A program made the position numbers and the translations under genes. From positions 4,672,001 to 4,736,000 of the forward strand of contig OY759599.1 of assembly GCA_963662465.1 (NCBI GenBank): a stretch of DNA of 64,000 nucleotides. Reading direction: 5' to 3'. Source of the stretch: Desulfatiglandales bacterium. Lineage in GTDB: Bacteria; Desulfobacterota; DSM-4660; Desulfatiglandales; Desulfatiglandaceae. Positions 6,038-61,757 of this stretch are shown one piece after another (within the stretch, counting starts at the first letter, position 1; each line of letters begins with the position of its first letter). The notes beneath the pieces were generated by a model. That model was given only the letters and a program-made list of their open reading frames with translations, was not told the origin of the DNA and searched no databases.

Positions 6038-7709
6038 CTATATCGTCTTCCTCTTTTCCCTCTCTCTTTCAACCGGCAGCCTCACTCTCATGGTGGTCCC
6101 GTCCGGTCCCGTCTCGGCCACCGCAATCTCACCCCCGTGGTCCTTGATGATGCCGTAACTGATGGAGAGCCCCAGACCCGTCCCCTTACCCACCTCCTTG
6201 GTGGTGAAAAAGGGATCGAAGATTCTGTCCAGCTTGTCCGCCGGAATGCCGCACCCGTTGTCCCGGACAAGGAGTTCGATAAACCCTTTGGATTGTTGAT
6301 TGTTGATTTTGGATTGTTGATTGTTGATTTTGGATTGTTGATTGGGTAAGGAATATCGGGTGGTGATCTCAATTTTTCCCCCTTCGATCTCCAATTTCGA
6401 ATTTTCAGTTTCATTCCGCAATCCGCAATTCAACGGCGTCTCTCGCATTGCCAATCAAATTCAACACCACCTGCTCCAGTTCATTGGGATCCCCCTTGAC
6501 TTGGGGAATATCCGGGGAAAGGGTCTTTTCGACCGTGATATTCCGAAGCCTGAGTTGTTCTCCGACCATGAGAAAGCACTCTTCAATGACCCGGTTCATG
6601 TCCACGGGGACGGAAACCTTCTCCGACTGTCGGCTGAATTGCCTCAGATGGTTGATGATGTTCATCATGCGCCTGGTGTTTTTATCGACCACATCCCCCA
6701 GCTCCGGAAGATCGCCGGCATCGGAAGTCCCTTTCTGAGACTTTCGCAGGGCCAGCTGGGCACTCATGCGCATCACCGTCAGGGGCTGGTTGAGTTCATG
6801 GGCCACGCCCGCGGCAAGCTCCCCGATGGCGGCGAGCTTGGCCGCCTGGACGAGCTGGGCCTGGGTGTCGCGGAGTCTTTCATCGGCGAGCTTTCGCAGG
6901 GAAATGTCCCGGGCAATGCCCAGCACTCCTTTCTTTCCATCTAAGGTCACCGGGTAGGTTCGGACTTCAACAAAGAATTTTTCTCCGTCTTTACGGATCA
7001 GGGTGAATTCCTCCGGCCCCCCGGGTTCGCCCGTTGCACTCCTCGCCAAATGCTGAAACACCCTCGGTATCTCCTCCGGCGAAACGAGGTTTAATTCCAG
7101 AAAATCCCTTCCAATGACCTCTTCCTTACCATATCCGATCAGATCTTCCGAGGTTCGGTTCATGTCCTGAAATACCCCTTTGAAATCGAGCAAAAAAATC
7201 CCGTCCGGGGCGGCATCAAAGAGAATTCTCAACCGCTCTTCGCTCTCTTTGAGTTCGTCCAAAACCTTTTTTTCCTCTGATATATCCCGGCCGACCGCAA
7301 CCATGGCGTGGGGATGGTTTTGCGCATCATGGAGTAAAGAAAACCGCATACTCACGGGGATTTCTTCACCCGATGGATTCACGGACCGGCACTGAACGGT
7401 TTTAAACGGAATTTTCCTTGAAATGATTTCACGGATGCAACCTATCACCTTTTCTCGGTCCTCTTCATGGATGAAATCCCCCGCCGGTTTTCCCAGCAGG
7501 ACTTCCCGCGCAAGCCCCATCCGTTCCACCATAATTTTATTTACATAGGTAACTTTCCCAAAAAGATCGGTGATGGTGATCCCGTCCGCCATGGCATCCA
7601 GGATAGAAGCGATTTTCTCGATCCCGGCCAGGGCACGGAGCCCGGCAAGTTCCGCCTTCAGGTCCTTTACCTGCTGTTGCGGCGATTTGTATGACGGTTT
7701 CTTCTCCAT
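6038..7709 (-). pseudogene. PAS-PAS NtrB-type histidine kinase, frameshifted at a (TTGCGGA)2 repeat
   Basis: 6411-7709 has PAS x2, AGVAHELNQP and the N-box. 6038-6454 has G1/F/G2 ([20 protein letters not shown]). The frames meet at the repeat 6415-6428. Confidence 0.9.
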
Positions 7710-7823
7710 AAACCTTACCCTTGCTTACGCTTGCCAACCTCCCACGGTTTCGTGTCTTTAAGGAGTTAAGAGCAAACAAATTCTCTGTTGTTTTACCAAC
7801 CCACCTATGTTAACGTTTACACC

Positions 7824-7961
7824 ATGAAGCCCATCCGATATACCAGACATGCAAAAAACAGAATAAGGATTGCAAATAAATATCTAAGGGTTACATATCT
7901 TGTATCAAAGGAAGAGATCCTTGTATTAACCGCGGTAAAAAAGAAAAAAGGATGGAGGTGA
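7824..7961 (+). pseudogene. DUF4258-type toxin with internal deletion
   Basis: MKPIRYTRHAKNR|IRIANKYLRVTY...ILVLTAVKKKKGWR, only 45 aa, directly upstream of a DUF2283-type gene. Confidence 0.6.
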
Positions 7962-7967
7962 TCGGTT

Positions 7968-8195
7968 TTGAGAATTGAATACGATAAAGAGGCGGATGCC
8001 CTGTATATCCAATTACGGGAAGTATACGTGGACGATAATATCGACCTTGAAGAAGGGATCACAATCGATCTGGATGCAAAGAGACATGTGGTGGGGATCG
8101 AAATCCTGGATGCCGGCAAGAAATTATCATTGAATGATATGGCTAACATAACCATTGAAAACCTCCCTTTAGAGATCGCCGCGGCAGCCGCTTGA
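7968..8195 (+). CDS. DUF2283 family protein (putative antitoxin)
   Basis: MRIEYDKEADALYIQL...ITIDLD...VVGIEILDA. Confidence 0.85.
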   Translation: MRIEYDKEADALYIQLREVYVDDNIDLEEGITIDLDAKRHVVGIEILDAGKKLSLNDMANITIENLPLEIAAAAA

Positions 8196-8217
8196 TGAAG
8201 CGTCAAGAATGATCTTT

Positions 8218-8545
8218 TCATTCTTCTCCCTCTCTTTCAACGGGCAGCCGGATACTCATGGTGGTCCCGTCCGGCCCCGTCTCAGCCACCGCAATCTCAC
8301 CCCCGTGGTCCTTGATGATGCCGTAACTGATGGAGAGCCCCAGACGGGATCCCGGGCCCGTTGTCTTTTACGAGGATTTCGACAAATCCGCCGGATGGTT
8401 GATGGTTGATTGTTGATTGGGTAAGGAATGTCGAGTGGTGATTTCGATTATCCCCCCTCTGATTTCCAATTTCGAATTTCCAGTTTCATTCCGCAATCCG
8501 CAATCCGCAATTCAACCGCATCTCTCGCGTTCCCAATCAGGTTCG
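8218..8545 (-). pseudogene. Orphan HATPase 3' fragment, a diverged duplicate of about 6050-6460
   Basis: Aligns by eye with the 3' end of the 6038-7709 kinase ([15 protein letters not shown] ... [28 protein letters not shown]). It lacks the F-box segment and has different repeat counts. Confidence 0.9.
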
Positions 8546-8745: not shown

Positions 8746-8747
8746 TT

Positions 8748-10612
8748 TCAATTCCCAACCGGCAGCCTCACCTTCATCGTCGTCCCCTCCCCCTCGCTCT
8801 CCACCCGAATCCGGCCGCCGTGCATCTCCACCAGCTGTCTGACCAGGCCAGACCCAGTCCCGTTCCCGGGCTCTTGTCCGTATACCCCCCCTTGACCTGA
8901 TAGAATTCCTCGAAGATTCTTTCCAGATCTTCCGGATGGATTCCGATGCCGGAATCGGCTACGGAGATTTGAATTTTGGATTGTTGATTGTTGATTGTTG
9001 GATTGTTGATTGTTGATGGGTATATTCCGCTTTTAAATCGCCAATCGACAATCCGTGCGGTTACGCGGATGCTTCCCCCGTCGGGCGTGAATTTCGCGGC
9101 ATTTGAAAGCAGATTGTACATAACCTGTTTGAGCTTCCGCTCATCAGCGGTGATTGTAAGCTTCGATGCTTCTTCGGATACCTGAAGTGCAAGGCTTATG
9201 CCATGGTTGTGGGCCTTTTCCTTGATCATAACCAGGCTGTTCTCCAGGAGATCGTTCAGATTCAGCCGGGAAAGCTCGAGGGCCGTCTTTCCCGCTTCCA
9301 CCTTGGAGAGATCCAGGATGTCGTTGATCAGGGAGAGGAGGTGCTTTCCACTGTCATGGATATCCTTCACATAGCCGGTCTGTTTTTCATTGAGGGTCCC
9401 GAAATATTCGGTCCCCATGACCTCTGAAAAACCGATGATGGCATTTAAGGGCGTGCGCAGTTCATGGCTCATGGAAGCGAGAAAACCGCTCTTGGCCTGG
9501 TTGGCCTTGTGCGCCTCATCCATGGCCGCCACAAGCCGCTTTTCCACCAGTTTCCTTTCGGTGATATCCCTGATGACGCCCACGGTTCCCAGAAACACTT
9601 TATGATTTGTCCTGGGGTTGTTGGCCCACAACCCGGAGCTGTTCACTTCGGCCACCACCCCGCCCCTATCCAGAACCTCAACAACACCCGGAACGGCTTC
9701 CCGGTTGCCTTTTGTTTTCAATATCACCTCGAGGCCCATGGTCTTTCGTTTTCCCGTTCGTTTCTCATCAAAAAGCCTGGGGGCGTCCTTATCCCCCAAC
9801 ACTTTTCCCCGATATCGCGGCAACACCTTTGAACGGCTGACATTTACCAGATCGGCGGGAATGATGATCTCGCTGAAATGCTTTCCCATCAGCTCCCCGG
9901 GGTCATACCCCAGGCTTTTTACGGGCTCGTTGATGAAGGTAAACCGTCCTTCCAGGTCAATGCGATATATGATGTCGGGGACCGTGCTCACCAGGGCCTC
10001 GAATCTCGCCTCCGCACGCTCCAGCTCATATACTTTGGCCTCCAGTAAATCCATGGCCTGCCTGAGCCGCTGCCGCGTCACCACGCCGTAAAAGGAGGAG
10101 GAAAAATTGAGACGAAAGTACTGGGCCAGAAAATCGGCATCCCCGCTTTTCAGATCCCAGAGCAGAACAACGGAGGGGATTTCGCCCCCCGACATCATCT
10201 TCCAGCAATAAAAATCGCCGGAAAAAGATTCCGCCTTCAGAATACAGTTCTTTTCGCCGCAAAGGCCGTTGGGACAACCCCCTGGGATTTCAAATGAAAT
10301 GGTCGTCCCCTTCTTCATGTTTTTTGGAACCGCTCCTTTCGTGCCCGCAACCCAATAGCTCGAATCTATCTTATAAAGAAAGGCGGCGCCCTTACAGGCG
10401 CCCAGGGGGGGGTCAATCCCTTCCAGAATAATGTCGACCGCCTCTTCGGGAGTTTGGGCCTTTTCCACCTTTTCCAGAATATGGAAGGCGTGGGCCATCT
10501 TTTCATTATTCTCGACAAATACGGAAAGAAACCCTTCCGTTTCCCTCAACTTTCGCGCCAGTTCTTCATAGCTCGGCTTATCATTCATTGGAAACCCCCA
10601 TTCCGCGATCAC
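8748..10612 (-). pseudogene. PAS sensor histidine kinase with a -1 frameshift near the C-terminus
   Basis: ASMSHELRTPLN, N-box, G1 and G2 are present. After GLGLA (about 8846) adding one base restores [17 protein letters not shown]...RLPVGN*. Confidence 0.85.
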
Positions 10613-12144
10613 ATCACCTGATTTCGTCCCGCTTTCTTGGCCCGATACATGGCCTCATCGGCCTTATTGAATAAATCTTCCCTGGATTGAATCCCCGCTC
10701 CGGGGTAACCGGCTACACCGATACTGATACTGATCTTAATATGCTTTCCATCGGCCGGAATGGCGTGATCCCAGACCCTTCTTCTCAGCTTTTCCGCCGC
10801 GATCAACGCCACCTCCGGAGGGGTTTCCGGAAGGAGTACGGCAAACTCCTCCCCGCCGTATCGGGCGGTGATATCCGAAACCCGAAGATTGTCCCTGAGA
10901 AGATTCGAGACCGCCTTCAGGACCTGATCGCCGACGGCGTGTCCAAACCGGTCGTTAACGGCCTTGAAATGGTCCAGATCGATCATCATGAAGGTTAAAG
11001 GCGCCCTATGACGATGGGCACGGGAAAACTCCGCCTTGAACCGCTCCTGAAAGTAACGGTGGTTATGAAGACCCGTCAGGTGATCGATGGTTGAAAACCT
11101 CTCAAACTCCCCATTGGAAACGGAAAGCGTCTCCAATGCCATAAGCTTGTCCAGCACCAGACCCGCGTAATTGGCCATGATGGAAATGGGGTCGGTGATG
11201 TCCATTTCCCCGGTCTCCGCCACCAGAATGCCCCGGGTAATTTTCCCCGCCTTCAAGGGAACGATGATCCAGTTCTTCAACCGGTTTACGCCTAACATGA
11301 GTTCCGGCGCACAATCCTTGTGGCTGACCACCCTTCCGGATTCCACGGCCAGCCGAATGGCATCCGTCTCCTCGGGATTCAACCTCAGATTTTCAATATC
11401 ACGGAGCCCTCCGCTCTCCCACGCCCCGGCCAATTGGTCGGAATCCTTTTCCATCATAAACGCCGCGGCGGTCAGGGCCCCGAACTCCCCGACCACCGTT
11501 TCGGTCATGAGACAACAGAGGTGGACGGGATCCATGCACTTGGATATCTCCAGGCTCATGTGATGAAGCGAGGCCATCTGGGCGTTCTGAGCGAAAAGGA
11601 TATCGGTTATCTCGCCAAGCTCTTTTCGCTGCTCCACCACCTCCTGGTGAAGACAGGAAATATTCAGGATCAACCCGGTAAACTGCCCCAGAAACTGGAC
11701 CAATTCCCGCTTATCTTCAGGGAGTTGATCGATTGAAAAAAAGCCGAAGGCCATGGATTTCCCCTTGATGGGAATAAGCATGGGGGCTTCGAACTCGGGA
11801 AAGAGTTCCTTCACCTCCCTGAACCGATCGGGCCAGACCACTATCTGGTCTTGCAGAACGCGCTTGAGGAGATCGGATGCTTCAATATCCAGGCGCCGGC
11901 GTTTGTCGGGGGCCACAAGCTTTCCGTTTCGAACGGTCTCATGGACCCTGCCCGGTTCCAGTGACAGCCACACGGCATTTTTCGACAGTTTCACCCGATC
12001 CCTGATATGATTGGACAATAAAACGGCCAGCGGTTCCAGTTCAGAAAGCTGGGTGGAAGAAAAAATAATATGCTTCAGATCCGTCAACTGCTCGTAAACC
12101 CCCTGGTACAGGTTTAACAGGTCATCCATTTTGAACCCTCCCAA
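10609..12144 (-). CDS. GAF-like plus GGDEF diguanylate cyclase
   Basis: DHLTGLHN, IDLDHFKAVND, RYGGEEF, ADEAMYRAKKAGRN. Confidence 0.92.
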   Translation of the reverse strand: MGGFKMDDLLNLYQGVYEQLTDLKHIIFSSTQLSELEPLAVLLSNHIRDRVKLSKNAVWLSLEPGRVHETVRNGKLVAPDKRRRLDIEASDLLKRVLQDQIVVWPDRFREVKELFPEFEAPMLIPIKGKSMAFGFFSIDQLPEDKRELVQFLGQFTGLILNISCLHQEVVEQRKELGEITDILFAQNAQMASLHHMSLEISKCMDPVHLCCLMTETVVGEFGALTAAAFMMEKDSDQLAGAWESGGLRDIENLRLNPEETDAIRLAVESGRVVSHKDCAPELMLGVNRLKNWIIVPLKAGKITRGILVAETGEMDITDPISIMANYAGLVLDKLMALETLSVSNGEFERFSTIDHLTGLHNHRYFQERFKAEFSRAHRHRAPLTFMMIDLDHFKAVNDRFGHAVGDQVLKAVSNLLRDNLRVSDITARYGGEEFAVLLPETPPEVALIAAEKLRRRVWDHAIPADGKHIKISISIGVAGYPGAGIQSREDLFNKADEAMYRAKKAGRNQVM

Positions 12145-12185
12145 TCAACAATCCATCAATCCCCAATCAACAATCCCTAAATCTC

Positions 12186-13382: not shown

Positions 13383-13466
13383 TTTGATCTCCCCCCCCTG
13401 GGATTGTTGATTGTTGATTGTTGATTGAAAGGACGTCGCTTCGCTCCGGTTATCAATCGCCAATCA

Positions 13467-13838
13467 TCAATCGAGAATTTTTTCCGTCAACGCAATGAGT
13501 TCCGAAGGTTTGAAAGGCTTCACAAGATAATCCCGGGCCCCCAGGGACATGGCCGTTTTTTTATCCTCCTCCTGCCCCTCGGTGGTGAGCATCATGACGG
13601 GAATGGCGGCGTAGGCATGATCCGCCTTGATCTTTTTCAAAAACCCGAAGCCGTCCAGGCGCGGCATGTTGATGTCAAGAATGATGGCGTCAAATGCTTC
13701 TTTGGCCAGCATTTCCAAGGCCTCCTGACCATCTCCGGCGGAAGTCACCTGAAAGCCCTTGCTCTTGAGCGAGAACTCCACCATTTTCCGAATGCTGGAC
13801 GAATCGTCCACGGCCAAAATCTTCTTCTGAGTGTTCAT
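13467..13838 (-). CDS. cheY: CheY-like single-domain response regulator
   Basis: ILAVDD, LDINMP, MLTTE, VKPF; lies between cheR and cheA. Confidence 0.85.
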   Translation of the reverse strand: MNTQKKILAVDDSSSIRKMVEFSLKSKGFQVTSAGDGQEALEMLAKEAFDAIILDINMPRLDGFGFLKKIKADHAYAAIPVMMLTTEGQEEDKKTAMSLGARDYLVKPFKPSELIALTEKILD

Positions 13839-13886
13839 CTTGCTCCTCCCTCAACTATTTAATATTCTTGGCGTCTTTGCGAGAGA

Positions 13887-14717
13887 TCATTCCGGTTTTC
13901 TGTACACCACCGATCCCCTGAGCCGCACCACCTCGAAGGGGCTGTCCACATGGGCCAGACTTTCGGCATGGCCCAGCAGCAGATATCCCCCTTTGTTGAG
14001 CGTTCGATATAAATGCTCAATACATCCGGCCTTGGCCCCGTCATCAAAATAGATCAGGATGTTTCGACAGAAAACACAATCCATGGCATGGATCCGACCG
14101 GTGGCAAACGGATCCACCAGGTTGATGCCGGCAAATTTCACCATTCTTTTCACCCTGGGCTTGACCCCATGTTTCCCATCGGTTTCATCAAAGTACTTTA
14201 ACCGATACAGGGGGGGGACATGCCTTATGCTGTAATCATCGTACAGGCCTTCACGGGCGGTTCGAAGAACCCTGGAACTGATATCCGACCCCAGAATCTC
14301 CAACCCGGCCCGTCCGGATTCCAACCCGTTTTCCAACAGGAGCATGGCCAGGGTGTATGGCTCCTCCCCGGTAGAACAAGCGGCGCTCCAGATTCTGAGG
14401 GGCCCCATCCCGCCGTTTCATTCCAGGAGCCGCGGAACGATCTCATGGCTGAAGTCTTCCAACTGATCCGCTTCGCGGAAGAAATAGGTCTCGTTGACGG
14501 TGACGGCATCGATCAACGCCTCCAGCTCCTGTTCACCACCGGGGTCATATTTGAGGAAATAACGGTAATCCCTGACCGTTTCCATGCCGGTGGCCTTGAA
14601 ACGAGTGTTCAGCCTGACCTTTAAAAAGCTCGCCTTGGACTCGGAAAGCCAGATCCCGCTCCGCGCTCTAATGAGATCCCTCAAAACCGTGAAGTCTTCG
14701 TTTGTTAAGTCCATCAA
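13887..14717 (-). pseudogene. cheR: CheR methyltransferase split by an in-frame TGA
   Basis: TVNETYFFRE...PRLLE*NGGMGPLRIWSAACSTGEEPY...FCRNILIYF...LGHAES, with the stop at 14418-14420. Confidence 0.9.
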
Positions 14718-16651
14718 TCCCCAATCCCCAATCCCCCAATCACCTTCCTAATCTCTTCATCCGGATCATCCCGCAGCGGCGCCGCCAAAGCGGCCAGTTC
14801 CGGATCCTTCATCCCCTCAAGCGCCTCTATGGCGGCGATGCGCACCGGTCCCACGTCTTCCATGAGGCGACGGCGCAGCGGCGCCATGGCCCTTTCGTCT
14901 CCAATTCTTCCGAGAGCGATCACCGCGGCGTAGCGAACCCAGATGTTTTCATCGGTCAGGGCGCCCAAAAGCGATTCCACGCTTCGAGAATCCCGAAGAT
15001 TCCCCAGGGCCGATGCCGCAAACTTCCGCACCTGCCAGTCCTCGTCCAGCAGGGCCGGCATCAACGGCCCCAGGGCCGAAAGGATCTTGCGCTTCCCCAG
15101 AATGCCGGCCGCAAAACGGCGCACCCCCCGCTCCGAGTTGTTGAGGCCGTCCATCAGATAGGCGTTGACCCTTCGGTCCATGATCAGCCCCAGGCACTGA
15201 ATGGCCGCCTGCCGGATTTCCATCTTTTCATGCCTCAGAAGCGGCGCCACATGGGTAATCACCTCGGGGGTTCCGATCTTTCCCAGGGCTTCGGAGGCCG
15301 ACTCCCGCACATCTCCATGGGAATCCTCCAGCAGGGGGAGCAAATACCGGATGGCTTTGACGGCCTTCATGACCCCCAGGGCGGCGGCACAGGCGCTCCG
15401 CACATGCGCGTTACGGTCGCTTAAATGTTCCATGAGCGGATCCACCACCGACCGATCCTTAAAAAGGGGCAGGGTTTCCGCGGCCATTTCCCGGATGACC
15501 TCATTGCCTTCCTTTAGAGCGGAGACCAGAAGGGGAATGGCTTTTTTGTCCCCGATTTGCCCCAGAATCCCCATGATCTCCTCTTGTATCCTTTCTTCCC
15601 TGCTCCCATAGGCATTCAGCAGGACCAACAGGTTCCGCGCGCCCAGGCGGACGAGGGCGTCACGGGAAAATTCCCGGATCCCTTCATCAAAATCCGCCAG
15701 CTGGTCCAGCAGCAACCCCATGTGACGCTCACTTCCCATGTTTCCCAGAGCCCAGATGGCCGATTTTCTGATCTCGGGATCATGGGTCTTGAGGGCGGAA
15801 GCGATCATCGCCTCCACGTCAATGCCCTTATCTTTTACCCGGTCAAAGACCCCGGTGGGTTCCACCTGCTCGATCCTGGAAAGGGCGGCCAGAGCCGCGA
15901 CCGGAATCATTTCATTTTCCGCGTTCATCTCGCCCATCAGAAAATCCACCCGGCTCGAATCGCCGATCCGGCCCAGGGCCTCGATCACGGCAAGGCGCAC
16001 CCACTCGTCTTCCTTATAAAGCGTCAAGAGATGGGGGACGGCCTCCCGTGCCTTCAGCAATCCCAGGGCCTCCACCGCCGGGTATCGAGCCCATTCGTCT
16101 TTGAGGATATTCAACAGATGGGGGACGGCCTTACTTTCGCTGATCTTTCCCAGGGCCTCGACGGCCGCATAACGGACGTTTTCCTCCGGATCTCGAAGGG
16201 CCTCCCGCAGCGCCGGAAAGGCCTCCTTCAGGCGACTGTTGCCAAGGATCCCCGCCGCGAATATCCGAACGTCGGGATCTTCATCCCCGAGGCAGGCTTC
16301 AACCGGGTGGAGGGCCGGCGGCCCCAGGTTGGCCAGAATCATCATCACCCGCGAGCGCAGGCCGGGATCATCACGGCGAAGGCATTCCAGCAACCTTTCC
16401 ACCAGCTTTTCGTGAGCCACCTCCGTCAATACCTCGGCCACCGCCAGTCGAACCCTTTGGGCCGGGTCGGTGAGACCCTCCATGAGCATGCGGTCCCCCT
16501 CGGGAATCCCCAAACAGCCTATCTCCCGATAGGCCTCCACCCGGACCTCTTCATCTTCCGCTTTCAGTCTCTCCCCGTATTGCGCCAACGCTTCATGTTC
16601 CAAAATCATCATCCTTATCCAAAGGCTTTTAAATCCACAATCCGCAATCAC
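14714..16651 (-). CDS. HEAT/PBS-lyase repeat protein
   Basis: Many repeats of about 31 aa (D...VRxAAxxALGxIG). The true start is probably near 16610. Confidence 0.9.
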   Translation of the reverse strand: MIADCGFKSLWIRMMILEHEALAQYGERLKAEDEEVRVEAYREIGCLGIPEGDRMLMEGLTDPAQRVRLAVAEVLTEVAHEKLVERLLECLRRDDPGLRSRVMMILANLGPPALHPVEACLGDEDPDVRIFAAGILGNSRLKEAFPALREALRDPEENVRYAAVEALGKISESKAVPHLLNILKDEWARYPAVEALGLLKAREAVPHLLTLYKEDEWVRLAVIEALGRIGDSSRVDFLMGEMNAENEMIPVAALAALSRIEQVEPTGVFDRVKDKGIDVEAMIASALKTHDPEIRKSAIWALGNMGSERHMGLLLDQLADFDEGIREFSRDALVRLGARNLLVLLNAYGSREERIQEEIMGILGQIGDKKAIPLLVSALKEGNEVIREMAAETLPLFKDRSVVDPLMEHLSDRNAHVRSACAAALGVMKAVKAIRYLLPLLEDSHGDVRESASEALGKIGTPEVITHVAPLLRHEKMEIRQAAIQCLGLIMDRRVNAYLMDGLNNSERGVRRFAAGILGKRKILSALGPLMPALLDEDWQVRKFAASALGNLRDSRSVESLLGALTDENIWVRYAAVIALGRIGDERAMAPLRRRLMEDVGPVRIAAIEALEGMKDPELAALAAPLRDDPDEEIRKVIGGLGIGD

Positions 16652-17013
16652 AAAAAAAATTTCCCCACCTCTTTCTCTAACGCCATGATATCATAAGGTT
16701 TTGACAAGTATCCATCACACCCGGCATCTCCGGTCCTTCTTTCATCTCCTTTCATGGCATAACCGGTTAAGGCGATAATGGGGATGGTTTTCGTTTCGGG
16801 ATCGGCCTTCAGGAGTTTGCTGGCCTCAAGGCCGTTCATCACCGGCATCTGAATATCCATCAAGATAAGATCCGGCTTTCTCTCCATGGCCAGTTCAACC
16901 CCCTCCCGACCATTGGTCGCCTCCAGGGAACGGTATCCAAACATCTCAAGGACATCCCTTAAAAGCTTAAGGTTCTTGGGATCATCCTCTACAATCAAAA
17001 CCGTCTTTTCCAT
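16648..17013 (-). CDS. Single-domain response regulator (DivK-like)
   Basis: VLIVEDD, LMDIQMP, IIALTGYAMKGD, SKPY. Confidence 0.9.
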   Translation of the reverse strand: MEKTVLIVEDDPKNLKLLRDVLEMFGYRSLEATNGREGVELAMERKPDLILMDIQMPVMNGLEASKLLKADPETKTIPIIALTGYAMKGDERRTGDAGCDGYLSKPYDIMALEKEVGKFFL

Positions 17014-17086
17014 TTCTATATCCCCCCCTCGAAAATAGTCCTTCCAAACTATTAACTTTTAACTATTAACTTTTAACTTTTAACTA

Positions 17087-17602
17087 TTAACTTGTAACGC
17101 CTTCGGCCGGAAAATAGACGGTAAAAACCGCCCCTTCCCCCGGTTCGCTCTCGGCACGGATATACCCCTTGTTCTGCTTCACGATGCCATAGACCGTGGA
17201 AAGCCCCATGCCGGTCCCCTTTCCCGCCTTCTTGGTGGTAAAAAAAGGGTCAAAGATCCGCTTCAGGATCCTCCGCTCCATGCCCATCCCCTTGTCGGCC
17301 ACCCGAAGCATGACGAATTGTCCGGGCTGAAAATCCGTTTCCGCAATATCTTCCGTGGTCAGGTCCGCCAGTATGCGCCGGTCGTCCCGCCGGTATTTTT
17401 CCGCCAGTTCCCAGGAAAAGAAATCGTCATCGGTCTTCCCGGCGACCTCCTCCTCGCGCATCCCCAGATCCTCGGCCAGAAGGCCGTTGCAGTAGACGTA
17501 CACGGAATTCAAGTCCTTAAAAAAGATCTTCTGGGGCAGATGCTCCAGAAGGGTCTTCAGGAAGTTCGATTTCTTCTCCACCATAGGGTTTTTTACGTTC
17601 AT
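17087..17602 (-). pseudogene. PAS-to-HATPase deletion remnant of a sensor kinase
   Basis: The PAS start (IFFKDLNSVYVYCN) is fused at TEDIAE|TDFQPGQFV to G1/F/G2. HisKA and the N-box are absent. Confidence 0.85.
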
Positions 17603-17751
17603 GTGGTTTTCCTCTGTCGCTCGTTTCTGGTTGCTGGTCTTTCCGAAATCCGAAATCATTCCAGTATGCTTGACCGCTACAACGCTTTAAGGTATCTTCA
17701 TCTTTAAAACACAAACCTGAATCCGGCACTTTCTATCTTGGAGGCATAAAA

Positions 17752-18409: not shown

Positions 18410-18456
18410 CCGCGCTTTCATTCGGTTCTCGTTGCTGGTCATTCCGCAATCCGAAA

Positions 18457-20349: not shown

Positions 20350-20423
20350 TCCATAACCCCCTGACCCGATCACATAAAACTTAAACCCTAAAACTTAAGA
20401 CTTAAAACCGCGGCCATGCCGCC

Positions 20424-21524: not shown

Positions 21525-21599
21525 GGGTGGTTGCTCCTTGCTCGTTACTTGTTGTTCGTTCTTGCTTGCCGGTCACTATTAACTCTTAACTCTTAACTA

Positions 21600-23882: not shown

Positions 23883-23914
23883 TTTTCATTTTCTCCTTTG
23901 CGGTTCATCCTTCG

Positions 23915-25978: not shown

Positions 25979-27137
25979 GGGATTGGTGATTGTTGATTGT
26001 TGATTGTCGATTGTTGATTGGTGATTGGTGATTGGTGATTGGTGATTGGTGATTGGTGATTGGTGATTGGTGATTGTTGATTGGTGATTGGTGATTGGTG
26101 ATTGGTGATTGAAGAGCCTCTATTTCTCTTTGCGTCTTTGCGTCTTTGCGAGAGATATTTTCATCGCCTATCAACAATCGCCAATCAACAATCCCAGCGG
26201 TGACGCGGATTTCCCCGTGGTCCGGAGTGAATTTCACCGCATTGGACAGGAGATGGTACACCATCTGCCGAATGCTGCGTTTGTTCACCCATACTTCGGT
26301 TCCTTCCAGATTTTCGGAAATATTGAGTGTAAGGCTTATGGCGCGTTTAAAGGCGTTCTCCTTTACCATGTTGAGGCTCTCCTCCAGGAGGTCCCGCACA
26401 TGAACCGCACCCTGTTCCAGCGCCGTCTCCCCGTTTTCCTCCAGGCTGACGAGATCCAGGATGTGGTCAATCATGGTCAGCAGATGCTTTCCGCTTTCCA
26501 GGATGTCCCCCACGTACGCCATCTGCCTGGGGTTGAGTTTACCGAAATACTGTGCCATCAACACTTCTGAAAAGCCGATGACGGCGTTTAAGGGCGTCCG
26601 CAGTTCATGGCTCATGGCGCCGAGGAACTCGCTCTTGGCAAGGCTTGCCGCTTCGGCCTCTTCCTTGGCCCCTACCAGTTCACGGGTACGTTCCAGCACC
26701 TGATGCTCCAGCTCCGTCTTGCCCCGAGCCAATGCTTGACAGAGTTCTTGGTTTTCCCGGCGCAGTTTCCGTTTTTGAAGCGCCTGGGCCACGGTATTTT
26801 CGAGGCGGCTGATATCCTCCAGGGGTTTGGTCAGGTAATCGAAGGCCCGGTCGTCCCGCAAGGCTTCTATGGCGCCTTTCATGTTGCCGAAACCGGTCAG
26901 GATAATCACCTGGATATCTTGATCCATTTCCTTGATCCGCCGCATGAACGAAAGGCCGTCCATGCCCGGCATGCGAACGTCGGTGATGACCAGATCAAAG
27001 GGACGGGACCGCAGCAGCGCCAGCCCTTCCCGTCCGGTGGAAGCGCACTCCATATGGTAATTCGATTCCGCCAGAACCCGCCGAAGGGTCTCCAGGATCT
27101 CCGGCTCGTCATCCACCATCAGAATTCGCTCGTTCAT
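25959..27137 (-). pseudogene. REC-HisKA kinase truncated within HATPase at a heptamer array
   Basis: ILMVDD, AMSHELRTPLN, LLSNAVKFT, then QSPITNH repeats. No G1/F/G2 boxes. Confidence 0.88.
25979..26111. repeat. Tandem heptamer array, about 19 x GATTG(G/T)T
   Basis: Directly visible; translates as (QSPITNH)n on the minus strand. Confidence 0.95.
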
Positions 27138-27141
27138 TTCT

Positions 27142-28368
27142 CTACCTTTCCCCATCCTGATATTTTGCCCGGATGGTCAGGATTTCATCCCTGGCGGCAA
27201 AAAAGGCGTCCACCACCTTCGGGTCGAAATGGCTTCCCCTCCCTTCCCGGATGATCTCAAAGGCTTTTTCCAGGGAAAACGGTTCTTTGTACAGCCGCGT
27301 GGAGGTGAGGGCGTCAAACACGTCCGCAATGGCCGTGATCCGTCCGGCCAGGGGAATTTGTTTCCCCTTGAGCCCTTTGGGATAGCCGGTTCCGTCCCAT
27401 TTTTCATGATGGGTGGCGGCAATAACCTCGGCCAGTTTGATAAACCCTGAATCAGCGCCTTTGAGTATCTGCTGTCCCATCACCGAATGCTGTCTCATCA
27501 ATTTCCATTCAGCCGAATCCAGTTTTCCGGGTTTCATGAGGATTCGATCGGGAATGCCGATCTTTCCCACATCGTGCATGCCGGCCGCATAGAGGATGTT
27601 CTCCACAATCTTTTCATTCAATCCCATTTTCCGGGCAACCGCCTCCGCATAGTTGCTCATGCGCAGAATGTGAGCGGCGGTATTTTCATCCTTATATTCA
27701 GCGGCCCGGGAGAGGCGGTAAATGGTGCCGAGAGAGACTTTCTTGAGCTTTTCAAACGTTTTCCGGAGTTGCTCCGTCCTTTCGGCCACCTCTGCTTCCA
27801 GTTCCTTCTGATAATTCAGCATATGGTCATGATACGCCTTCACCTTCACCGAGGATCGGACCCTGGCCTGCAACTCCGCCATATCCACCGGTTTGCTCAA
27901 GAAATCATCCGCGCCCGCCCGCAAGGCCCTGATCCTCGCCTTTGTCTCCTTGAGGGCGGTCACCATAACCACCGAGATCATTTGGGTGGCGGCATCCTGT
28001 TTCAGTCGCTCAGCCACCTCGAAACCGTCCATTCCGGGCATCATGACATCCAGCAGAATCACATCCGGCGGGTCTTCCCTGGCCGAATCGAGGGCCTTCA
28101 AACCGTTCTCCGCCAGGGTTACCTCATAACCGAGGGGCAGCAACATGGCCTCCATGAGGCGAAGGTTTCGCTCTTCATCATCCACCACCAAAACCCTTGG
28201 ATTGTTGATCCTTGGATTGTCGATTGTTGATTGTTGATTGTTGATTGAAGGCGCCGCTTGGCTTCTTGGGTTCATGGACACACCTCCGGGACCATTATTG
28301 GATTGGTGATTGTTGGATTGGTGATTGGCGATTGAAGGCGCCGCTTGGCTTTTTGGGTTCATGGACAC
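27142..28368 (-). CDS. RpfG-like response regulator with HD-GYP c-di-GMP phosphodiesterase
   Basis: REC (VLVVDD, LDVMMP) plus MHDVGKIG, HHEKWDGTGYP, ADVFDAL. The N-terminus is duplicated. Confidence 0.92.
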   Translation of the reverse strand: MSMNPKSQAAPSIANHQSNNHQSNNGPGGVSMNPRSQAAPSINNQQSTIDNPRINNPRVLVVDDEERNLRLMEAMLLPLGYEVTLAENGLKALDSAREDPPDVILLDVMMPGMDGFEVAERLKQDAATQMISVVMVTALKETKARIRALRAGADDFLSKPVDMAELQARVRSSVKVKAYHDHMLNYQKELEAEVAERTEQLRKTFEKLKKVSLGTIYRLSRAAEYKDENTAAHILRMSNYAEAVARKMGLNEKIVENILYAAGMHDVGKIGIPDRILMKPGKLDSAEWKLMRQHSVMGQQILKGADSGFIKLAEVIAATHHEKWDGTGYPKGLKGKQIPLAGRITAIADVFDALTSTRLYKEPFSLEKAFEIIREGRGSHFDPKVVDAFFAARDEILTIRAKYQDGER

Positions 28369-28374
28369 ACCTCC
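28243..28374. repeat. 45-bp direct repeat (28243-28287, 28330-28374) duplicating the RBS and start codon
   Basis: GATTGAAGGCGCCGCTTGGCTT(C/T)TTGGGTTCATGGACACACCTCC, 87-bp (in-frame) spacing, separated by heptamers. Confidence 0.92.
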
Positions 28375-28453
28375 ATAACAATTGGTATTTCAGCGTTAAG
28401 GGTTGGCTCAATCGACAATCAACAATCAACAATCAACAATCAACAATCGACAA

Positions 28454-30398
28454 TCAACAATCCCCCACCGCCCTTCTCAGCTCCCGCATTCGGGGGGGTT
28501 TGCTCAGGATCACATCCACATGGGGGATCTTCTTCCCTTCGGATTGCAGCATTTTTCCCCAGCCGGTGAGGAGAATGACCGGCGTGTCTGAGGATTCGGC
28601 CTTGATGTGTTTCGCCACCTCCCGACCGTCCATATAGGGCATGCCCAGATCGGTCACCACCAGCTCAAAGGGTTTCCCCCGTTTTCGGGCGTCATAAAAG
28701 GCTTTGAGACCCTCGGCGCCGCTGTAGGCGATCTTTACCCGGTGGCCGTCCGTTTCAAACATCCCTTGGAGGAGACTGAGCAGGGCCGGTTCATCATCGA
28801 TGGCCAGTATCCGCATGGGGGATGCGGGCATGGGCATCTCATGGGATATTTCGCTTACGGGTTCATCCCCTTCACGGGAAATGGGAAAGAGCAGCCGCAC
28901 GGATGTTCCCTCGCCGGGCTCGCTTTCAATCTGAATCTCCCCGTCGTGCCGTTCCATGATCCCGTGTACCGTGGCCAGCCCCAGGCCCGTTCCTCCGGCC
29001 CCTTTCGTTGAAAAAAAGGGTTCCAGACATCGATCTTTTTCCTGTTTCCCCATCCCCGTTCCGGAATCCTTCACCTGAAGGAATATGTCGTCTTCGGAAA
29101 TCCCGGTGCCGAGGGTTATGACGCCGCCTCCCGGCATGGCGTCGGCGACGTTGAAGATCAGGTTGATCAGGGCCTGGCGAATCTCGCTTTCCAGGCCCTC
29201 CACAAGGGGAAGGGGGTCCGTCGGTTCGGTCTTGACCTCGATCATGATCCCCTTGCGGTGGGCGATATCTTTCCACCGGGGTTTTGCCAGTTCCATGGCC
29301 TGAATGACCATTTGGTTGAGATCCAGGGGACCGAGGCACTGACTTTCCGGCGTGGTGCGGTAAAAGGACCGCATTCTCTCCACGATCCCGATAATGTCCT
29401 CGCCTGCCGTTCGGATGATCGTCAGGTATTGGGATATTTTTTCATCGAGACCCTTTTCATGAATCAGCAGCAGGTCGGTGTAGCCCAGAATGGGCGACAC
29501 CGCGTTGTTGATGTCGTGGGCCATGCCGGAGGCCATCTGCCCCAGGGCCCGCAGCCGCTCCTGCCGCATCACGGTCATCTGGGTCTTTCGAAGGTCGTTA
29601 CAGGCATCGTGCAGGTCCTCATAGAGTTTGGCGTTTTGAGCCCCCAGCGCCACGTGCTCGGCCAATTGCTGGAGAAACTCGAATGATCCGCTGGTGAAAC
29701 TCCCCGGTTTCCGCCGCATGGTCAGCAGGACCCCCAGCACCTCGTCTTCCACGGCCAGGGGCGTCAGCACCATGGAACGGAATCCTTCCGCCGCGAGGCC
29801 TTCCAAGGCGGGGGTGTACAACAGGGATATATCCGGTTCATAAACCGCTTTCCCTTCCGCGCACCGGCGCAAACCGTTTTGATCAATGGGGATAATGGTT
29901 CCGGGATACATTCCCCATTTCTTGACCAGTTTCAGGTCCGTGGTCCCCGTGGCCGCCACCGTGAAAATGTCCTCGTCCTGATCCAGAAGCAGAACACAGC
30001 CGAAATCCACGGACAGGTAATCTTCCAGATATTTGAGGGCAACGGTAAAAAGGGAGTGCTTGTCCTGCCGTTGAATCATGGCGCGGGTCATTTGGTTCAA
30101 CAACCGCATCCGTTTCAATTGGTGCTGAAGACGGTCCTCTTTCTTTTTTAACTGCTCACAGGCACGAACCAGTTGGGCGGTTTTTTCCCGGACACGCACT
30201 TCCAGATCGTCTTGTACCTGTAAAAGCGCCTTCTCGGCCTCCACCCGTTCTCGGGTTTTTCGTTGAAGCGTCTTTTCCGTTTGATTTCCATCGGACCACC
30301 CACCCAATGGATTCTTCCACGGGCCGCCCGCGGCCCCGTTTTTCAGGGCTTCCCCCCCCCCTGCTTGTCACCAAAATCTGCAACGGTTTTTGTTCCAT
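28454..30398 (-). CDS. GAF hybrid histidine kinase; the native start (30398) is out of frame across a G10 tract
   Basis: GAF, SGMAHDINN, HATPase and REC lie in 28454-30307. Upstream MEQKPLQILV joins in-frame if the C10 at 30352-30361 is C9. Confidence 0.8.
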
Positions 30399-30488
30399 CT
30401 CTTCGCCTCCGGCGAGTTAATAGTTAATAGTTAATAGTTGAGGAGAAATCGTCTATTCCTTCACTTTTCACTTTTCACTCTTCACTCT

Positions 30489-32570
30489 TCACTTTTCACT
30501 CTTCACTGCCTTTCCGGGCAGAATCGACCCCAAAACGGTTTTCAATTCCGCTATCTGATAGGGCTTGGGCATGGCGCCGCAAAACCCGTAGGCCCGAAAA
30601 TCGCTCATGACCGGATCATTGAAGTAGCCGCTGGACACGACGGCTTTCACGTTCGGATCGATGGCCATGAGCTTTTTGAGGGTCTCCACGCCGCCCATGC
30701 CGTCCTTGATGGTCAAATCCAGGATCACCGCATCAAAGGGGGTTCCAGCCGTCTTTTGGGCCTTGTACAATCGAACGGCTTCAGCGCCGTCCCCGACCGT
30801 TTGGGCATCGTACCCCAGACGATTGAGCATCTGTTGGACCAGCTTTCGAAGCATCTCTTCGTCGTCCATAAGTAAAACCCTTTTGATTTCGGATTTGCCT
30901 GTCGATACAAAATGGGGGATGGGAAATGGGGCTTCTTCATATTCCGCATTCCGCATTCCGCACTCCCCATTCTCCAAGGCGGGGAGGAAGATGGAGACCG
31001 TGGTGCCGGCGCCCACCGTTGACTGCACGCTGATCCGCCCCCCATGTTTCGCGGTCACCGCATAGGCGGTGGCAAGGCCCATGCCCATCCCCTTTTGAAC
31101 CCCCATCCTTTTGGTGGAAAAGTAAGGGTCGAAGATCTTGCTGATGTTTTCCCTGGGGATCCCCGCACCCTGGTCGCTGATGGAAATCTTGACGTATTTT
31201 CCATGGCCCAGGGCGGCCACGGAATTCTTGAATGCTTCTCCCATCACCGTGTTTTCCGCCTTGAGCGTCAGTATGCCCCCTTCGGGCATGGCCTCCATGG
31301 CGTTTGAGAGGATGTTCCCGACGGCATAGTTCAACTGGTGGGGATCATGAAGCACGGGCCGGAGGTCTTTTGCAATAGAGAGCGTCAAGCGATAGTTTGG
31401 AGCGGGCGGCAGTTTAGCGGCGCATGCTTCGAGGGTTTCTTTTATCGACCTGGCCTTCTTTTGGGGGGCGCTCCCCTTGGACAGAAGCATGAGCCGGTGG
31501 GTCAAATCCTTGGCCCTCAGGGAAGCTTCCTCCGCGTCGCGCAGAAAAGGGAGGATGCGGCTTTCCAGCTCTGTTTCGTCCAGCGCCAGGGATACATTGC
31601 CCAGGATCATGGAAAGCAGGTTGTTGTAGTCATGGGCGATGCCCCCGGTCATCACCGCAAAGGACTCGAATTTCCGGGCCTTGTGGCGCGCTTCCTCGGC
31701 TTCCACCCGATCGGTCACATCGTCATAAATGGCCACCAGCTCACCGAAGGGGAGTTTGTACAGGCGGTTTTCCCGCCACCCTTCCCGGTCCCGGTCCCGA
31801 TAATAGCGGGGCGGCATTATTTCAGGCTCGCCCGTCCGCCACACCCGTCTCAGGGCATCCACCAGCCCGAATTTGTCCATTTCAGGGAAAAGATCCAGCA
31901 GGTTTTTCCCGATCGCCGCTTCCCGCCTGATCCGGCTGATCCTCTCCGCCGCCGGGTTGATGTCCTTAAAAACAAAATAGGCCCCGTCATCCATGGCCTC
32001 ATAAACGGCCACCCCGCTGTGGGTGTCCTCGAACATCTGCCGGTAGCGATCCTCGGTCTCCTTGAGTGTCTTTTCGGCTGTTTTGCGCTCGGTAACATCA
32101 TGGATAACGGCTCTGATTTCGGCGCCGCCGGTCTCTTCATCCCCAACGGCGACGGTTTCCAGATGGACATGGATAGCAGGGCCTTGCGGTGGAACGAGCC
32201 TCAGTTCACAAATCCCCCTGGTGTTGGTCGCCACCAGCTTCCGGAGACACAAATAGAAATGGTCCCGGTCTTCCCCGTGGACGAATTTGGAAAAGGGTTG
32301 CGACAAAAGAGCGTCCCGGTCCACCCCCAGCATGGCGGCGCATGAAAGGTTCGCCTCCCGAATCACCCCTTTCTCATCCAGGGTGAAGTACCCCACGGGA
32401 GCGAAGTCGTACAGATCCATATACCGGTCCCGCATCTTTTCCAGTTCTTGCTGGGTTTTTTGGAGCGTATCATTCTGCATCTCCAGTTCGAGCTGATGAA
32501 CCCGCAGGTCATGGGTGACCCGTTCGAGCTGTTTTACCGTCAATGGGGAAAGATTTTCATCCCTTTCCAT
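30489..32570 (-). CDS. PAS-PAS hybrid histidine kinase
   Basis: ELEMQND..YDFAPVGY, PAS x2, GGIAHDYNN, HATPase, REC (ILDLTIK). Confidence 0.92.
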   Translation of the reverse strand: MERDENLSPLTVKQLERVTHDLRVHQLELEMQNDTLQKTQQELEKMRDRYMDLYDFAPVGYFTLDEKGVIREANLSCAAMLGVDRDALLSQPFSKFVHGEDRDHFYLCLRKLVATNTRGICELRLVPPQGPAIHVHLETVAVGDEETGGAEIRAVIHDVTERKTAEKTLKETEDRYRQMFEDTHSGVAVYEAMDDGAYFVFKDINPAAERISRIRREAAIGKNLLDLFPEMDKFGLVDALRRVWRTGEPEIMPPRYYRDRDREGWRENRLYKLPFGELVAIYDDVTDRVEAEEARHKARKFESFAVMTGGIAHDYNNLLSMILGNVSLALDETELESRILPFLRDAEEASLRAKDLTHRLMLLSKGSAPQKKARSIKETLEACAAKLPPAPNYRLTLSIAKDLRPVLHDPHQLNYAVGNILSNAMEAMPEGGILTLKAENTVMGEAFKNSVAALGHGKYVKISISDQGAGIPRENISKIFDPYFSTKRMGVQKGMGMGLATAYAVTAKHGGRISVQSTVGAGTTVSIFLPALENGECGMRNAEYEEAPFPIPHFVSTGKSEIKRVLLMDDEEMLRKLVQQMLNRLGYDAQTVGDGAEAVRLYKAQKTAGTPFDAVILDLTIKDGMGGVETLKKLMAIDPNVKAVVSSGYFNDPVMSDFRAYGFCGAMPKPYQIAELKTVLGSILPGKAVKSEK

Positions 32571-32572
32571 TT

Positions 32573-33088
32573 TTACCCCCCCTCTCGATGTTTCATTTCA
32601 GTGGGCGCCATCCAATAACCCATACATCTTCTTAAATGATCTATCTCAACTTCAAGTCCGCGGTTTCGACGTTTTAACGCTTCCGCCAGGGCACGCTTTT
32701 CTTTTCGCGAAGTTCGTTTTTTTAAAGCCCGTTTCACGGCATCCACCAGCACATCGGCATGCGCCAGGGGTTTCATCAGATAATCGGCGGCGCCCCCGTC
32801 CCGCATGGCCCCGATGACCTGCTCAAAGGTGAGAAAACCGCTCAGAACGATGATTTCCACGTCATCTTCCTCCTTTCTAATACGCTTCAGGAACGCCACG
32901 CCCGGAATATCAGGGATTCGCATATCCATGATCACCACATCAAAGGATTTCCATTGAAGGCGCTTCAGGGCCTCTTCACCGCTGCCGGCGCAGGTGATGC
33001 AAAGCCCCTCCCGCGCGAGAATCGCCTCGATGACCCGGCAAATATCCGGATCACCATCCACAACCAGGATCGATGCTTTCATTTTCAC
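32573..33088 (-). CDS. Response regulator (REC plus coiled coil)
   Basis: ILVVDGD, IMDMRIP, LSGF, MKPL. Confidence 0.85.
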   Translation of the reverse strand: MKMKASILVVDGDPDICRVIEAILAREGLCITCAGSGEEALKRLQWKSFDVVIMDMRIPDIPGVAFLKRIRKEEDDVEIIVLSGFLTFEQVIGAMRDGGAADYLMKPLAHADVLVDAVKRALKKRTSRKEKRALAEALKRRNRGLEVEIDHLRRCMGYWMAPTEMKHREGG

Positions 33089-33146
33089 CTTCCCATAACC
33101 CGCTATCAGGGTGGAAACCAGGTATTCTCAATTCCTTATTCTTCTT

Positions 33147-33428
33147 TCATTGACGCCCTTCCCGTGACTTGGGCATGCAACTTGGACATCCATCGGTTTT
33201 TCCCTCACCGCAGGGCCATTCGTAACAGAAGGCCGAAACGGCGGTGGGATACTCATAGTCATGGGAGGCTTTCACATTGAATCTGTGGGGACACCGGGAA
33301 CAACTCCATTTTTCCCAATTGGATTGAACCGCGTAATCCAGACAATTCCTGTAGCGGGAACAGAAGATGTTCCGCTCTCCACGCTCAGGCCTCGGATCTC
33401 CCTTAATTTCCATTGATTGCTCTCTCAA
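33147..33428 (-). CDS. Small Cys-rich hypothetical protein
   Basis: RNIFCSRYRNCLDYAV...WSCSRC; 8 Cys in 93 aa. Confidence 0.6.
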   Translation of the reverse strand: MREQSMEIKGDPRPERGERNIFCSRYRNCLDYAVQSNWEKWSCSRCPHRFNVKASHDYEYPTAVSAFCYEWPCGEGKTDGCPSCMPKSREGRQ

Positions 33429-33791
33429 ATTTTCAACTCGACGCGCCAGGCCTTCTTAAATCCGAAATCCGAAAACCGAAATTGAAAATCATTCCACGGG
33501 CAGCCGACGCGACACCTATAATCCTTTGGGGTCGGTCGGTCCGGGGGCCGGATTCTTCCGTGACATGATCATTTTTACCCCATCGAAAAAAGCTTGTATA
33601 TCGGGAAAACACTGAAACGGCATCAGGAAATCACTTAAAAAACAATCAGGTTTTTCCTGATTGACATAATGCGAACAGGGACCTCCCGATGTCCTCGATG
33701 TCCATTGATTGAAAGATCTTTACAGTATTGAGAAATATTGATATGCCTTTTACGAATAATATTTTTTGAAAGTCGTTGTGGGGAAACAAGA

Positions 33792-42337: not shown

Positions 42338-42408
42338 CCTAGAGATTCATTGACAAAAGAACTTAAAACTTAAAACTGCAGCGCGCCGCGTTAGATTGGA
42401 CCCAAAGA

Positions 42409-61597: not shown

Positions 61598-61757
61598 GGG
61601 AAATCTTGATATTCTGTTGGGCTCGGGCTATAAGATTTATATTGAGTACCTGAATGAAAACCTCGTTCAGGCACAGTTTTAAGTTTTAAGTTTTAAGTAA
61701 AAAAACAAACCCATATCATCTAATTGTGAATCTCTAACGAAAATTGGAAAACCCGAC

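Follow-up and report, generated by a model that had tools for sequence, protein, structure and literature searches.

Period-7 repeat arrays in a bacterial signalling island as probable gene-less remnants of a small mobile four-helix-bundle cassette

The signalling island and its arrays

The window analysed here is a 64,000-nucleotide stretch (G000:C1:4672001-4736000) of the source genome of a Desulfatiglandales bacterium, designated G000, which is 8.16 Mb in a single contig and on which genes were called with a simple dicodon model, start positions being approximate. Between 6000 and 33500 the minus strand of the window encodes kinases, response regulators, CheB/CheR, a HEAT protein, and GGDEF and HD-GYP proteins, with several of the genes split or truncated. 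This signalling island looks lineage-specific on sequence comparison, because its HEAT gene was not found in 40 relatives searched and a DNA search of five congeners with the island returned matches to single genes only, with no synteny. Gene junctions in the island carry tandem arrays of 7-base units, and the feature is real and well supported, being best read as what an intervening-sequence-type cassette leaves once its gene is gone, here crowded into a decaying island. The gene of such cassettes is a four-helix-bundle gene (4HB; PF05635/TIGR02436, S23p, Avd-like, the 23S intervening-sequence protein).

The arrays listed in a preliminary description of this DNA were recovered in place by a sequence check, and the readings in which an array supplies the stop codon (GIGD, IVNS, VGDC and KSEK, each followed by the stop) are correct. 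That most gene junctions of the island are marked was borne out, as 12 of the 17 junctions between 10588 and 32573 bear a period-7 array, one has a 9-mer-type arm, and four have none. Several window arrays lie inside reading frames, a point the preliminary description does not stress. The features are given below in window coordinates with strand, G-rich arrays at stops being called tails and C-rich arrays at starts heads; z refers to the folding of an arm pair.

6291..6344 (-): in-frame array reading C/A, within the HATPase loop (NQQSKI repeats) of a histidine kinase gene that is split
6415..6429 (-): G-rich GATTGCG x2 over the stop of ORF 6411-7709, at a kinase gene frame change
8394..8511 (-): 83% identical second copy of the 6290-6440 module, with three GATTGCG units
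8968..9054 (-): full gene-less footprint in frame in a HATPase loop, with G arm 9035-9054, spacer, and C arm 8968-9017 (z -2.2)
12140..12183 (-): G/T tail arm past the stop of the Hpt-CheB gene
13402..13472 (-): paired footprint, with G arm 13452-13472 containing the response-regulator stop, a 24-nt spacer, and C arm 13402-13427 ahead of the next ribosome-binding site
13870..13890 (-): 9-mer-type arm at the CheR stop, like GxxExxY flanks (a resemblance only)
14715..14741 (-): GATTGGG tail arm containing the HEAT-protein stop
16632..16653 (-): GATTGCG-type tail arm at a response-regulator stop
17047..17098 (-): AGTTAA(T/A) tail arm containing a stop
17642..17657 (-): GATTTCG arm, a direct repeat of 18443-18458
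18443..18458 (-): GATTTCG/GATTGCG tail arm at a hybrid-kinase stop
20375..20426 (-): GTTTTAA tail array after a small GC hairpin at 20409-20426
21535..21619 (-): AGTTAAT tail arm with a stop (21575-21619); the head, 21535-21570, is A/C-rich but weak
23801..23895 (-): AGTGAAA-type arm past a stop (about 23875-23895); a second arm, 23801-23819, reads AACTTCG
25981..26193 (-): truncated HATPase with a G arm (26163-26193), then a 9-mer run (26127-26150) and a C arm of 18.7 units (25981-26111) that leads into a receiver domain (z -2.8)
28200..28462 (-): stop-bearing G arm 28409-28462; C arms 28200-28334, duplicated, where the HD-GYP gene starts
30415..30507 (-): AGTGAA(A/G) tail arm with a stop, and AACTATT head arm (pair z -0.9)
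30895..30972 (-): in-frame footprint in a HATPase-receiver linker (z -1.55)
33458..33490 (-): GATTTCG arm at the upstream island edge
42360..42377 (+): C/A arm at the dprA-topA junction
61650..61745 (+): GTTTTAA array within a partial TA-flanked inverted-repeat element

Arm pairs of the window fold with z of -2.2 to -2.8 in three cases and more weakly in two. The suggestion that head and tail at 13401-13472 could fold as complements was confirmed (-23.2 kcal/mol, z -2.3). The list of head arrays held for the most part, except that 21535-21570 is weakly periodic and 30415/30459 has poorly matched arms (z -0.9). Of two copies described as isolated, the C/A arm at 42358-42377 is present, whereas 61676-61698 is G/T-rich upstream of a plus-strand start and belongs to a separate repeat family. 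An Rfam scan of the window gave no family match, and duplicates of the window junctions at other G000 loci were mostly not found, most being unique. Contigs of runs X1/X2 agree with the window letter for letter over 6315-8314, 8316-9333, and 9304-17894, these being probably from the source sample and not independent; across three contig sets no unit-number variants were seen at arrays, and a 1-base deletion at 9000 occurs in short high-depth contigs probably derived from other loci.

Genome-wide occurrence and polarity

Period-7 arrays number 394 in G000 as against one after block shuffling, with at most 18 each for periods 5, 6, 8, 10, 11, and 13, 37 for period 9, and 42 for period 12. The window holds 15, where the median 64-kb stretch has 2; its count is exceeded in only three 64-kb bins. 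The genome scan for stop and start bias that the preliminary description had proposed showed arrays to be random neither in orientation nor in position: 136 of the 394 lie at stops (3.8% for random positions) and 139 at starts (8.7%), and in unambiguous cases tails are G-rich by 74:8 and heads C-rich by 61:12. The proposed polarity rule thus holds genome-wide. The arrays are not a feature of signalling islands as such, occurring across the genome and across phyla with no specificity for signalling genes.

Polarity could arise simply from random heptamer repeats having stop codons on the G/T strand, and GATTGTT-type units do have stops on the G strand only. However, the bias is kept in every stop-codon class, whether a unit has stops on both of its strands (38:2 for tails, 34:7 for heads), on neither (12:3 and 4:2), or on the C strand only (10:2 and 8:0), and this account leaves inverted array pairs and the 4HB association unexplained. 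With the bias independent of stop class, it is largely refuted and must be regarded as highly improbable.

Inverted array pairs at most 1.5 kb apart number 62 for period 7 and 11 for period 9, with none for periods 6, 8, or 10. In 58 of these 62 it is the G-rich arm that leads; 11 of the 62 are redundant, belonging to one tandem stretch. Because an element with a G-rich arm first and a C-rich arm second reads alike on both strands, any junction copy will show G-rich sequence after a stop and C-rich sequence before a start; it follows that polarity is a by-product of cassette geometry, with no strand-sensing required. Arm order also bears on whether the arrays might be integron attC-like sites of a signalling-gene cassette array. 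Such sites, like the arrays, begin at stops, and G000 has five integron-integrase matches above cut-off; an attC site, however, reads RYYYAAC at its beginning and GTTRRRY at its end, opposite to what those 58 pairs show, GTT is missing from many units, and the five integrases have no array next to them and all lie outside the window. This candidate was rejected on the reversed arm order and the lack of arrays adjoining intI genes, and is the least probable of the explanations considered.

Heptamer arms flank 4HB genes

The element that would account for these arrays is a cassette of about 400-500 bp, made up of some four G-rich 7-base units, the 4HB gene, and a complementary C-rich run. The arrays of G000 cluster most densely at polysaccharide loci with many insertion sequences and toxin-antitoxin genes, and most of the genome's 11 PF05635 matches lie there. 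There is a G-rich array upstream of the G000 4HB genes and its complement downstream wherever the 3' end survives. An array lies within 200 nt of 7 of 10 G000 4HB matches as compared with 80 of 637 small genes, and of none of 22 Y1 transposases, 12 GxxExxY genes, 5 integron integrases, or 9 IS66 elements.

This association extends well beyond G000. Period-7 arrays were found on at least one side of 22 of the 30 best-scoring loci of the phylum, drawn from 30 genomes other than G000 (control 0/30), in 52 of the best 80 of 603 cross-phylum loci (control 2/75), and in 30 of 40 viral-contig loci (control 0/34); a further arrangement, period-8 arms, occurs in 9 of the 80 cross-phylum loci. By record title the cross-phylum loci represent Bacteroidota, Acidobacteriota, Chloroflexota, Planctomycetota, Bacillota, Pseudomonadota, and one archaeon. 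Among 168 loci, 161 are unique and 107 have a clear stem, with a median of 32 bp. The partner arm of the same locus is a better complement than any foreign arm in 36 of 77 and 21 of 46 loci, long flanking open reading frames (ORFs) are co-oriented in 95 of 113 and 101 of 117, and most of the 77 stems with an upstream host ORF begin at most 15 nt from its stop. Cassettes occupy operon junctions and are for the most part co-oriented; one arm lies at the stop of the preceding host gene, and the other ahead of the start that follows.

The unit sequence drifts while both arms remain complementary. Among 102 upstream arms there are 88 distinct cyclic units with a weak shared register, and arms are the more similar the closer their 4HB genes: about 2% of pairs are alike where 4HB identity is 30-50%, and 6 of 7 where it is 80-90%. 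At the accB-accC site in 11 xanthomonad-family genomes (which are kin) the two arms of each genome fit one another best (permutation p 0.0004) as units drift among GGGAATC, GGGATTC, GTGATTC, and GATGGGT; the strict GGGAATC pattern is found in only 4 of 30 xanthomonad-family loci, arms being mostly variants such as GGGATTC and GTGATTC. Codon-position differences of the 4HB gene are 0.22/0.13/0.53 (19 pairs), and the gene is under purifying selection. Its relatives in the Protein Data Bank, 2GSC and 2RLD, have five chains each.

Several 4HB loci depart from this arrangement. L033, L038, and L311 have reversed arm order or a complete hairpin on each side, and two weak PF05635 matches, L066 (G124:C3) and G000:C1:7557725, lack heptamer arms, L066 being followed by an AAC-rich repeat resembling the template of a diversity-generating retroelement. 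A tandem 105-bp unit (15 x 7) of GTTTT(G/A)G heptamers occurs at G000:C1:86290-88820 and 8147976-8149070, the second copy ending at a 4HB gene.

Gain and loss between genomes

One cassette occupies different loci in different genomes. At atpB-atpE, genome G121 has an arm-4HB-arm insert that G000, G130, and G127 are without, and this cassette matches G000 C1:6454019-6454444 at 96.5% over 428 nt, in addition to six shorter derivatives in G000. Elsewhere the 4HB gene has been deleted and the arms persist: at cheR-cheB, G130 contains an intact cassette and G123 a different 4HB gene with different arms, and G000 retains both arms and the first and last 4HB codons with the middle deleted. At dprA-topA, period-7 arrays of other units occur in 3 of 29 other family members, and no 4HB-sized insert was found at this junction in the 29. 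The array at 61650-61745 is missing at the orthologous site in G121, G124, G125, and G127, and is present in part in G130.

These alleles bear on two earlier proposals. Arrays had been suggested to be scars of a cassette gain-loss system, and filled, empty, and deleted states at atpB-atpE and cheR-cheB agree with that, although the cargo is the 4HB gene and not the signalling genes. It had further been asked whether cargo genes sit between head and tail arrays; the 4HB gene lies between a tail array and the next head array, and the comparison of orthologous junctions yielded filled states elsewhere but no filled window junction. The broader contention that a mechanism, rather than random microsatellites, underlies the arrays is supported by the 4HB flanks, the filled and deleted alleles, and the co-occurrence of arrays with 4HB genes.

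Assignment of the window arrays

The period-7 arrays of the window are probably leftover arms of this small mobile cassette, its gene having been lost. They would be footprints by class rather than by way of a filled allele, because the window has no 4HB remnant, yet co-occurrence and the geometry of 3' complements match the cassette. Among 120 phylum genomes, arrays of the window's two chief unit classes are present in 33 of the 69 that have 4HB genes and in none of the 51 that lack them (22 of 40 versus 0 of 25 families), counts drawn from genomes that are related, and so not independent, and from some incomplete assemblies. Window-class arrays rise from 9 of 35 genomes with one or two 4HB genes to 12 of 15 with at least seven. 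All 4HB remnants of G000 are found inward of a G-rich arm, 11 of them sense and 7 antisense, and none outward. In three sets of window-unit arrays (80 GATTGTT metagenome loci examined of 121 found, and viral-contig sets of 75 unique GATTKCG loci, from 80 of 119, and 77 unique AGTGAAD loci, from 80 of 142), a complementary arm lies 3' of the G arm in 14, 6, and 5 loci and never 5'. GATTGTT loci with a 4HB gene have the expected orientation, with the C-rich arm downstream of the gene, and GATTGGT, GATTGGG, AGTGAAA, and AGTTAAT each serve as 4HB arms in one or two of the 161 best-scoring loci. In a scan of ORFs near GATTGTT arrays (87 of 94), PF05635 was matched by three, and phage integrase, Hpt, and short-chain dehydrogenase by two each.

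Several observations weigh against this assignment. No 4HB remnant was found beside any window array, and since the island is not syntenic in the relatives searched, no filled window junction was seen. Window-unit arrays are mostly orphans, with a 4HB gene in the flank of 3 of 80 GATTGTT metagenome loci and of none of the 75 GATTKCG and 77 AGTGAAD viral-contig loci, and GATTGTT and GGATTGC are missing among the arms of the 161 best-scoring 4HB loci. The genomes of the co-occurrence test are kin, and some 4HB loci have period-8 or inverted-order arms. In-frame kinase footprints are hard to derive from a full cassette, which suggests that gene-less copies move alone. We know of no catalytic role for the 4HB protein.

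Orphan arrays invite a different interpretation, that they are slippage microsatellites selected as post-transcriptional signals (binding sites, G-quadruplexes, or hairpins), with the 4HB protein as binder and not cargo. Orphans far exceed genes (394 arrays against 11 4HB matches), many species retain a cassette at accB-accC, the units share a weak register (G-D-D-D-N-Y-H) that stands above shuffled ones, and published views of single unit families are regulatory (PMC4679880, PMC4692102). Nevertheless, arrays are missing at orthologous congener sites, the unit differs at the same junction, footprints keep the first and last 4HB codons, and most units are unable to form G-quadruplexes; in the window only 14715-14741 has tracts of at least three G, and it has three where four are needed. 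Rehm et al. saw no regulatory role (PMC4692102). We consider selection as a signal unlikely.

Derived elements and movement of the cassette

Gene-less derivatives of 4HB cassettes, 80-242 bp in length, with inverted ends and 8-bp target duplications, are present in seven copies in G000 (7 of 22 candidate end pairs), and an internally deleted derivative has therefore spread again after loss of the gene. The copies are:

G000:C1:4583324, 4645317, 5786517, 6186309, 8021148, 1310203, 8028597

The end motif of these elements occurs once in the window, near 50970. A second family, about 130-140 bp, TA-flanked, and with inverted repeats and GTTTTAA arrays inside, is represented by window 61650-61745 and 28 other blast hits in G000. 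Some gene-less derivatives have thus been copied again with target duplications, and the window arrays may have arisen either directly from cassettes or as such gene-less copies, with 7-base slippage then changing their length and the arrays going on to serve as recombination points in the decaying island.

These families speak for a cassette that moves at the DNA level, its arms being hairpin or cruciform ends for host transposases or microhomology recombination and the 4HB gene a passenger. Near strand-symmetry of pairing agrees with this reading, which is possible if less than probable. Against it, intact cassettes have no target duplications, the direct-repeat lengths beside the 107 stems equalling those at mismatched loci; no IS66 copy with ends matching the 8-bp-duplication elements was found in G000; and a period of 7 with free units across phyla would be unexpected under many different transposases.

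Movement by way of RNA would start from pairing of the arms in the host transcript, where RNase III would cut and free the cassette RNA. By analogy with the Coxiella insert (PMC4990558), RNA processing at the hairpins is plausible, and pairing with RNase III cleavage may well be what the arms do. The primary movement would then consist of cassette RNA, bound by an Avd-like pentamer, being copied by a host reverse transcriptase and inserted without target duplication; this is the route we favour, though only tentatively, movement at the DNA level being about as likely. A single RNase III gene is encoded in G000, where a group II-type reverse transcriptase also adjoins a 4HB gene. The distinction between RNA- and DNA-level pairing is borderline, with G.U versus A.C at 160:128 (p 0.07) and the sense duplex the more stable in 58 cases versus 40 (p 0.07).

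A parallel to the heptamer arms is seen at GxxExxY (PF13366) genes (L012-L016 of G000:C1, and L227-L254), which are flanked by inverted degenerate runs with a period of about 9 bases, the own arm being the best complement in 13 of 25 loci. By sequence resemblance, window 13870-13890 and 26127-26150 look like arms of this type.

Relation to known repeats and elements

The closest relatives are intervening sequences (IVS) of rRNA genes. The Coxiella 23S helix-45 insert holds S23p in a stem loop; its ORF is preceded by three GACAGAT heptamers in tandem, and RNase III cleaves where the first of them begins (PMC4990558). The PF05635 family is found at scattered rRNA sites in Candidate Phyla Radiation (CPR) bacteria (10.1101/2024.02.27.582315). 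ORF-bearing rRNA IVS of Coxiella burnetii, Leptospira, and CPR inserts share with the present cassettes the 4HB protein family in a stem loop. In contrast, the cassettes described here are in mRNA operon junctions and protein loops, are mobile, and decay to arms, the window having arms only. Its arrays abut protein genes rather than lying inside an rRNA gene, with no Rfam match, and an S23p/PF05635 ORF is absent from the window and present in parent cassettes, whose complementary termini form a stem in 107 cases (median 32 bp).

Individual heptamer families have been described before. For GGGNATC and GGGGA(C/T)T repeats of Xanthomonas and Nostoc, Rehm et al. reported G-rich arrays that on the sense strand follow a stop, or on the antisense strand precede a start, by at most 50 bp, with convergent pairs, a preference for four units, and function left open (PMC4692102). 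The polarity rule is shared, and GGGNATC-type units flank 4HB genes in the xanthomonad-family genomes here; that work, by contrast, treats one unit family as G-quadruplexes and, in the portions available, names no flanked gene or element (PMC4692102). TAACTGA arrays of Beggiatoaceae before starts were viewed as binding sites of a translational regulator by MacGregor 2015, in the text of which a search gave no hits for 'intervening' or '23S' (PMC4679880). The TAACTGA reverse complement resembles the AGTTATC/AGTTGTC arm family of G000. The STRR repeats of cyanobacteria are likewise intergenic period-7 arrays just ahead of starts.

Mobile elements offer a second comparison. REP/REPIN-RAYT systems, as well as MITEs (miniature inverted-repeat transposable elements), have a small gene between inverted repeats and many gene-less copies. 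Here, unlike in these, the gene is not an HUH/DDE transposase, arms are periodic with free sequence, and intact cassettes lack target duplication; none of the 22 Y1 matches adjoins an array, and terminal inverted repeats with target duplication, as in MITEs, are seen in the two derived families and not at intact cassettes. PF05635 is homologous to Avd of diversity-generating retroelements (PMC10053308), whereas the cassette is without a template/variable repeat or dedicated reverse transcriptase. The available portions of PMC8700078 and PMC4853749 add nothing on the link between arrays and 4HB genes.

The polarity rule has thus already been printed for one unit (Rehm 2015), as have heptamers beside a 4HB gene in one rRNA insert (Warrier 2016); a unifying element, or a paper joining arrays, 4HB genes, and footprints outside rRNA, was not found in the literature searched. 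Such an element, although doubtful in its full extent, might be a widespread transposase-free one whose insertion at stops is RNA-mediated and driven by a period-7 RNA stem together with an Avd-like pentamer. The rRNA IVS would be one landing site, most long heptamer repeats (STRR, TAACTGA, GGGAATC) would be footprints, and the GxxExxY 9-base arms a parallel family. The probable cassette origin of the arrays would itself explain a class of bacterial repeats that has long puzzled, and it links, in one testable object, why period 7 is the commonest long repeat in prokaryotes, what 4HB/S23p proteins do, and how ORF-bearing rRNA IVS originated. Intact, deleted, and empty alleles at named junctions are available for experiments.

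Effects on kinase genes of the island

Arrays number 38 inside confident G000 genes, many in HATPase loops and HATPase-receiver linkers, and paralogues share some linker arrays, so arrays also spread by gene duplication. The G130 orthologue of 30489-32570 is without both the linker footprint and the tail array, its linker being 12 amino acids shorter. The array at 6415 coincides with a kinase frame change. At 25981-26193 a HATPase is interrupted within an arm and runs on through 19 array units to a receiver domain, which is likely an array-mediated deletion joint. In 12186-13382 an Hpt domain is fused in frame to a partial receiver and CheB domain, which suggests that a deletion took most of cheA and the start of cheB. 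We infer that slippage and recombination between arrays give the simplest account of the island breaks. By lengthening kinase loops, shifting frames, and marking deletion joints, footprints in G000 help to remodel signalling genes.

Other observations

A two-gene insert with a TumE domain, 17752-18409 (+), lies between the direct GATTTCG arms 17642-17657 and 18443-18458, and a DUF2283 gene, 7820-8195 (+), lies between two copies of a kinase 3' end. G000:C1:8151577-8161625, at the contig end, is 99.5% identical over 10 kb to an early region, 91899-101959, either by duplication or by assembly overlap. The small GC hairpin CTAxxGCGGCAxxGCCGC of window 20409-20426 precedes several arrays across G000.

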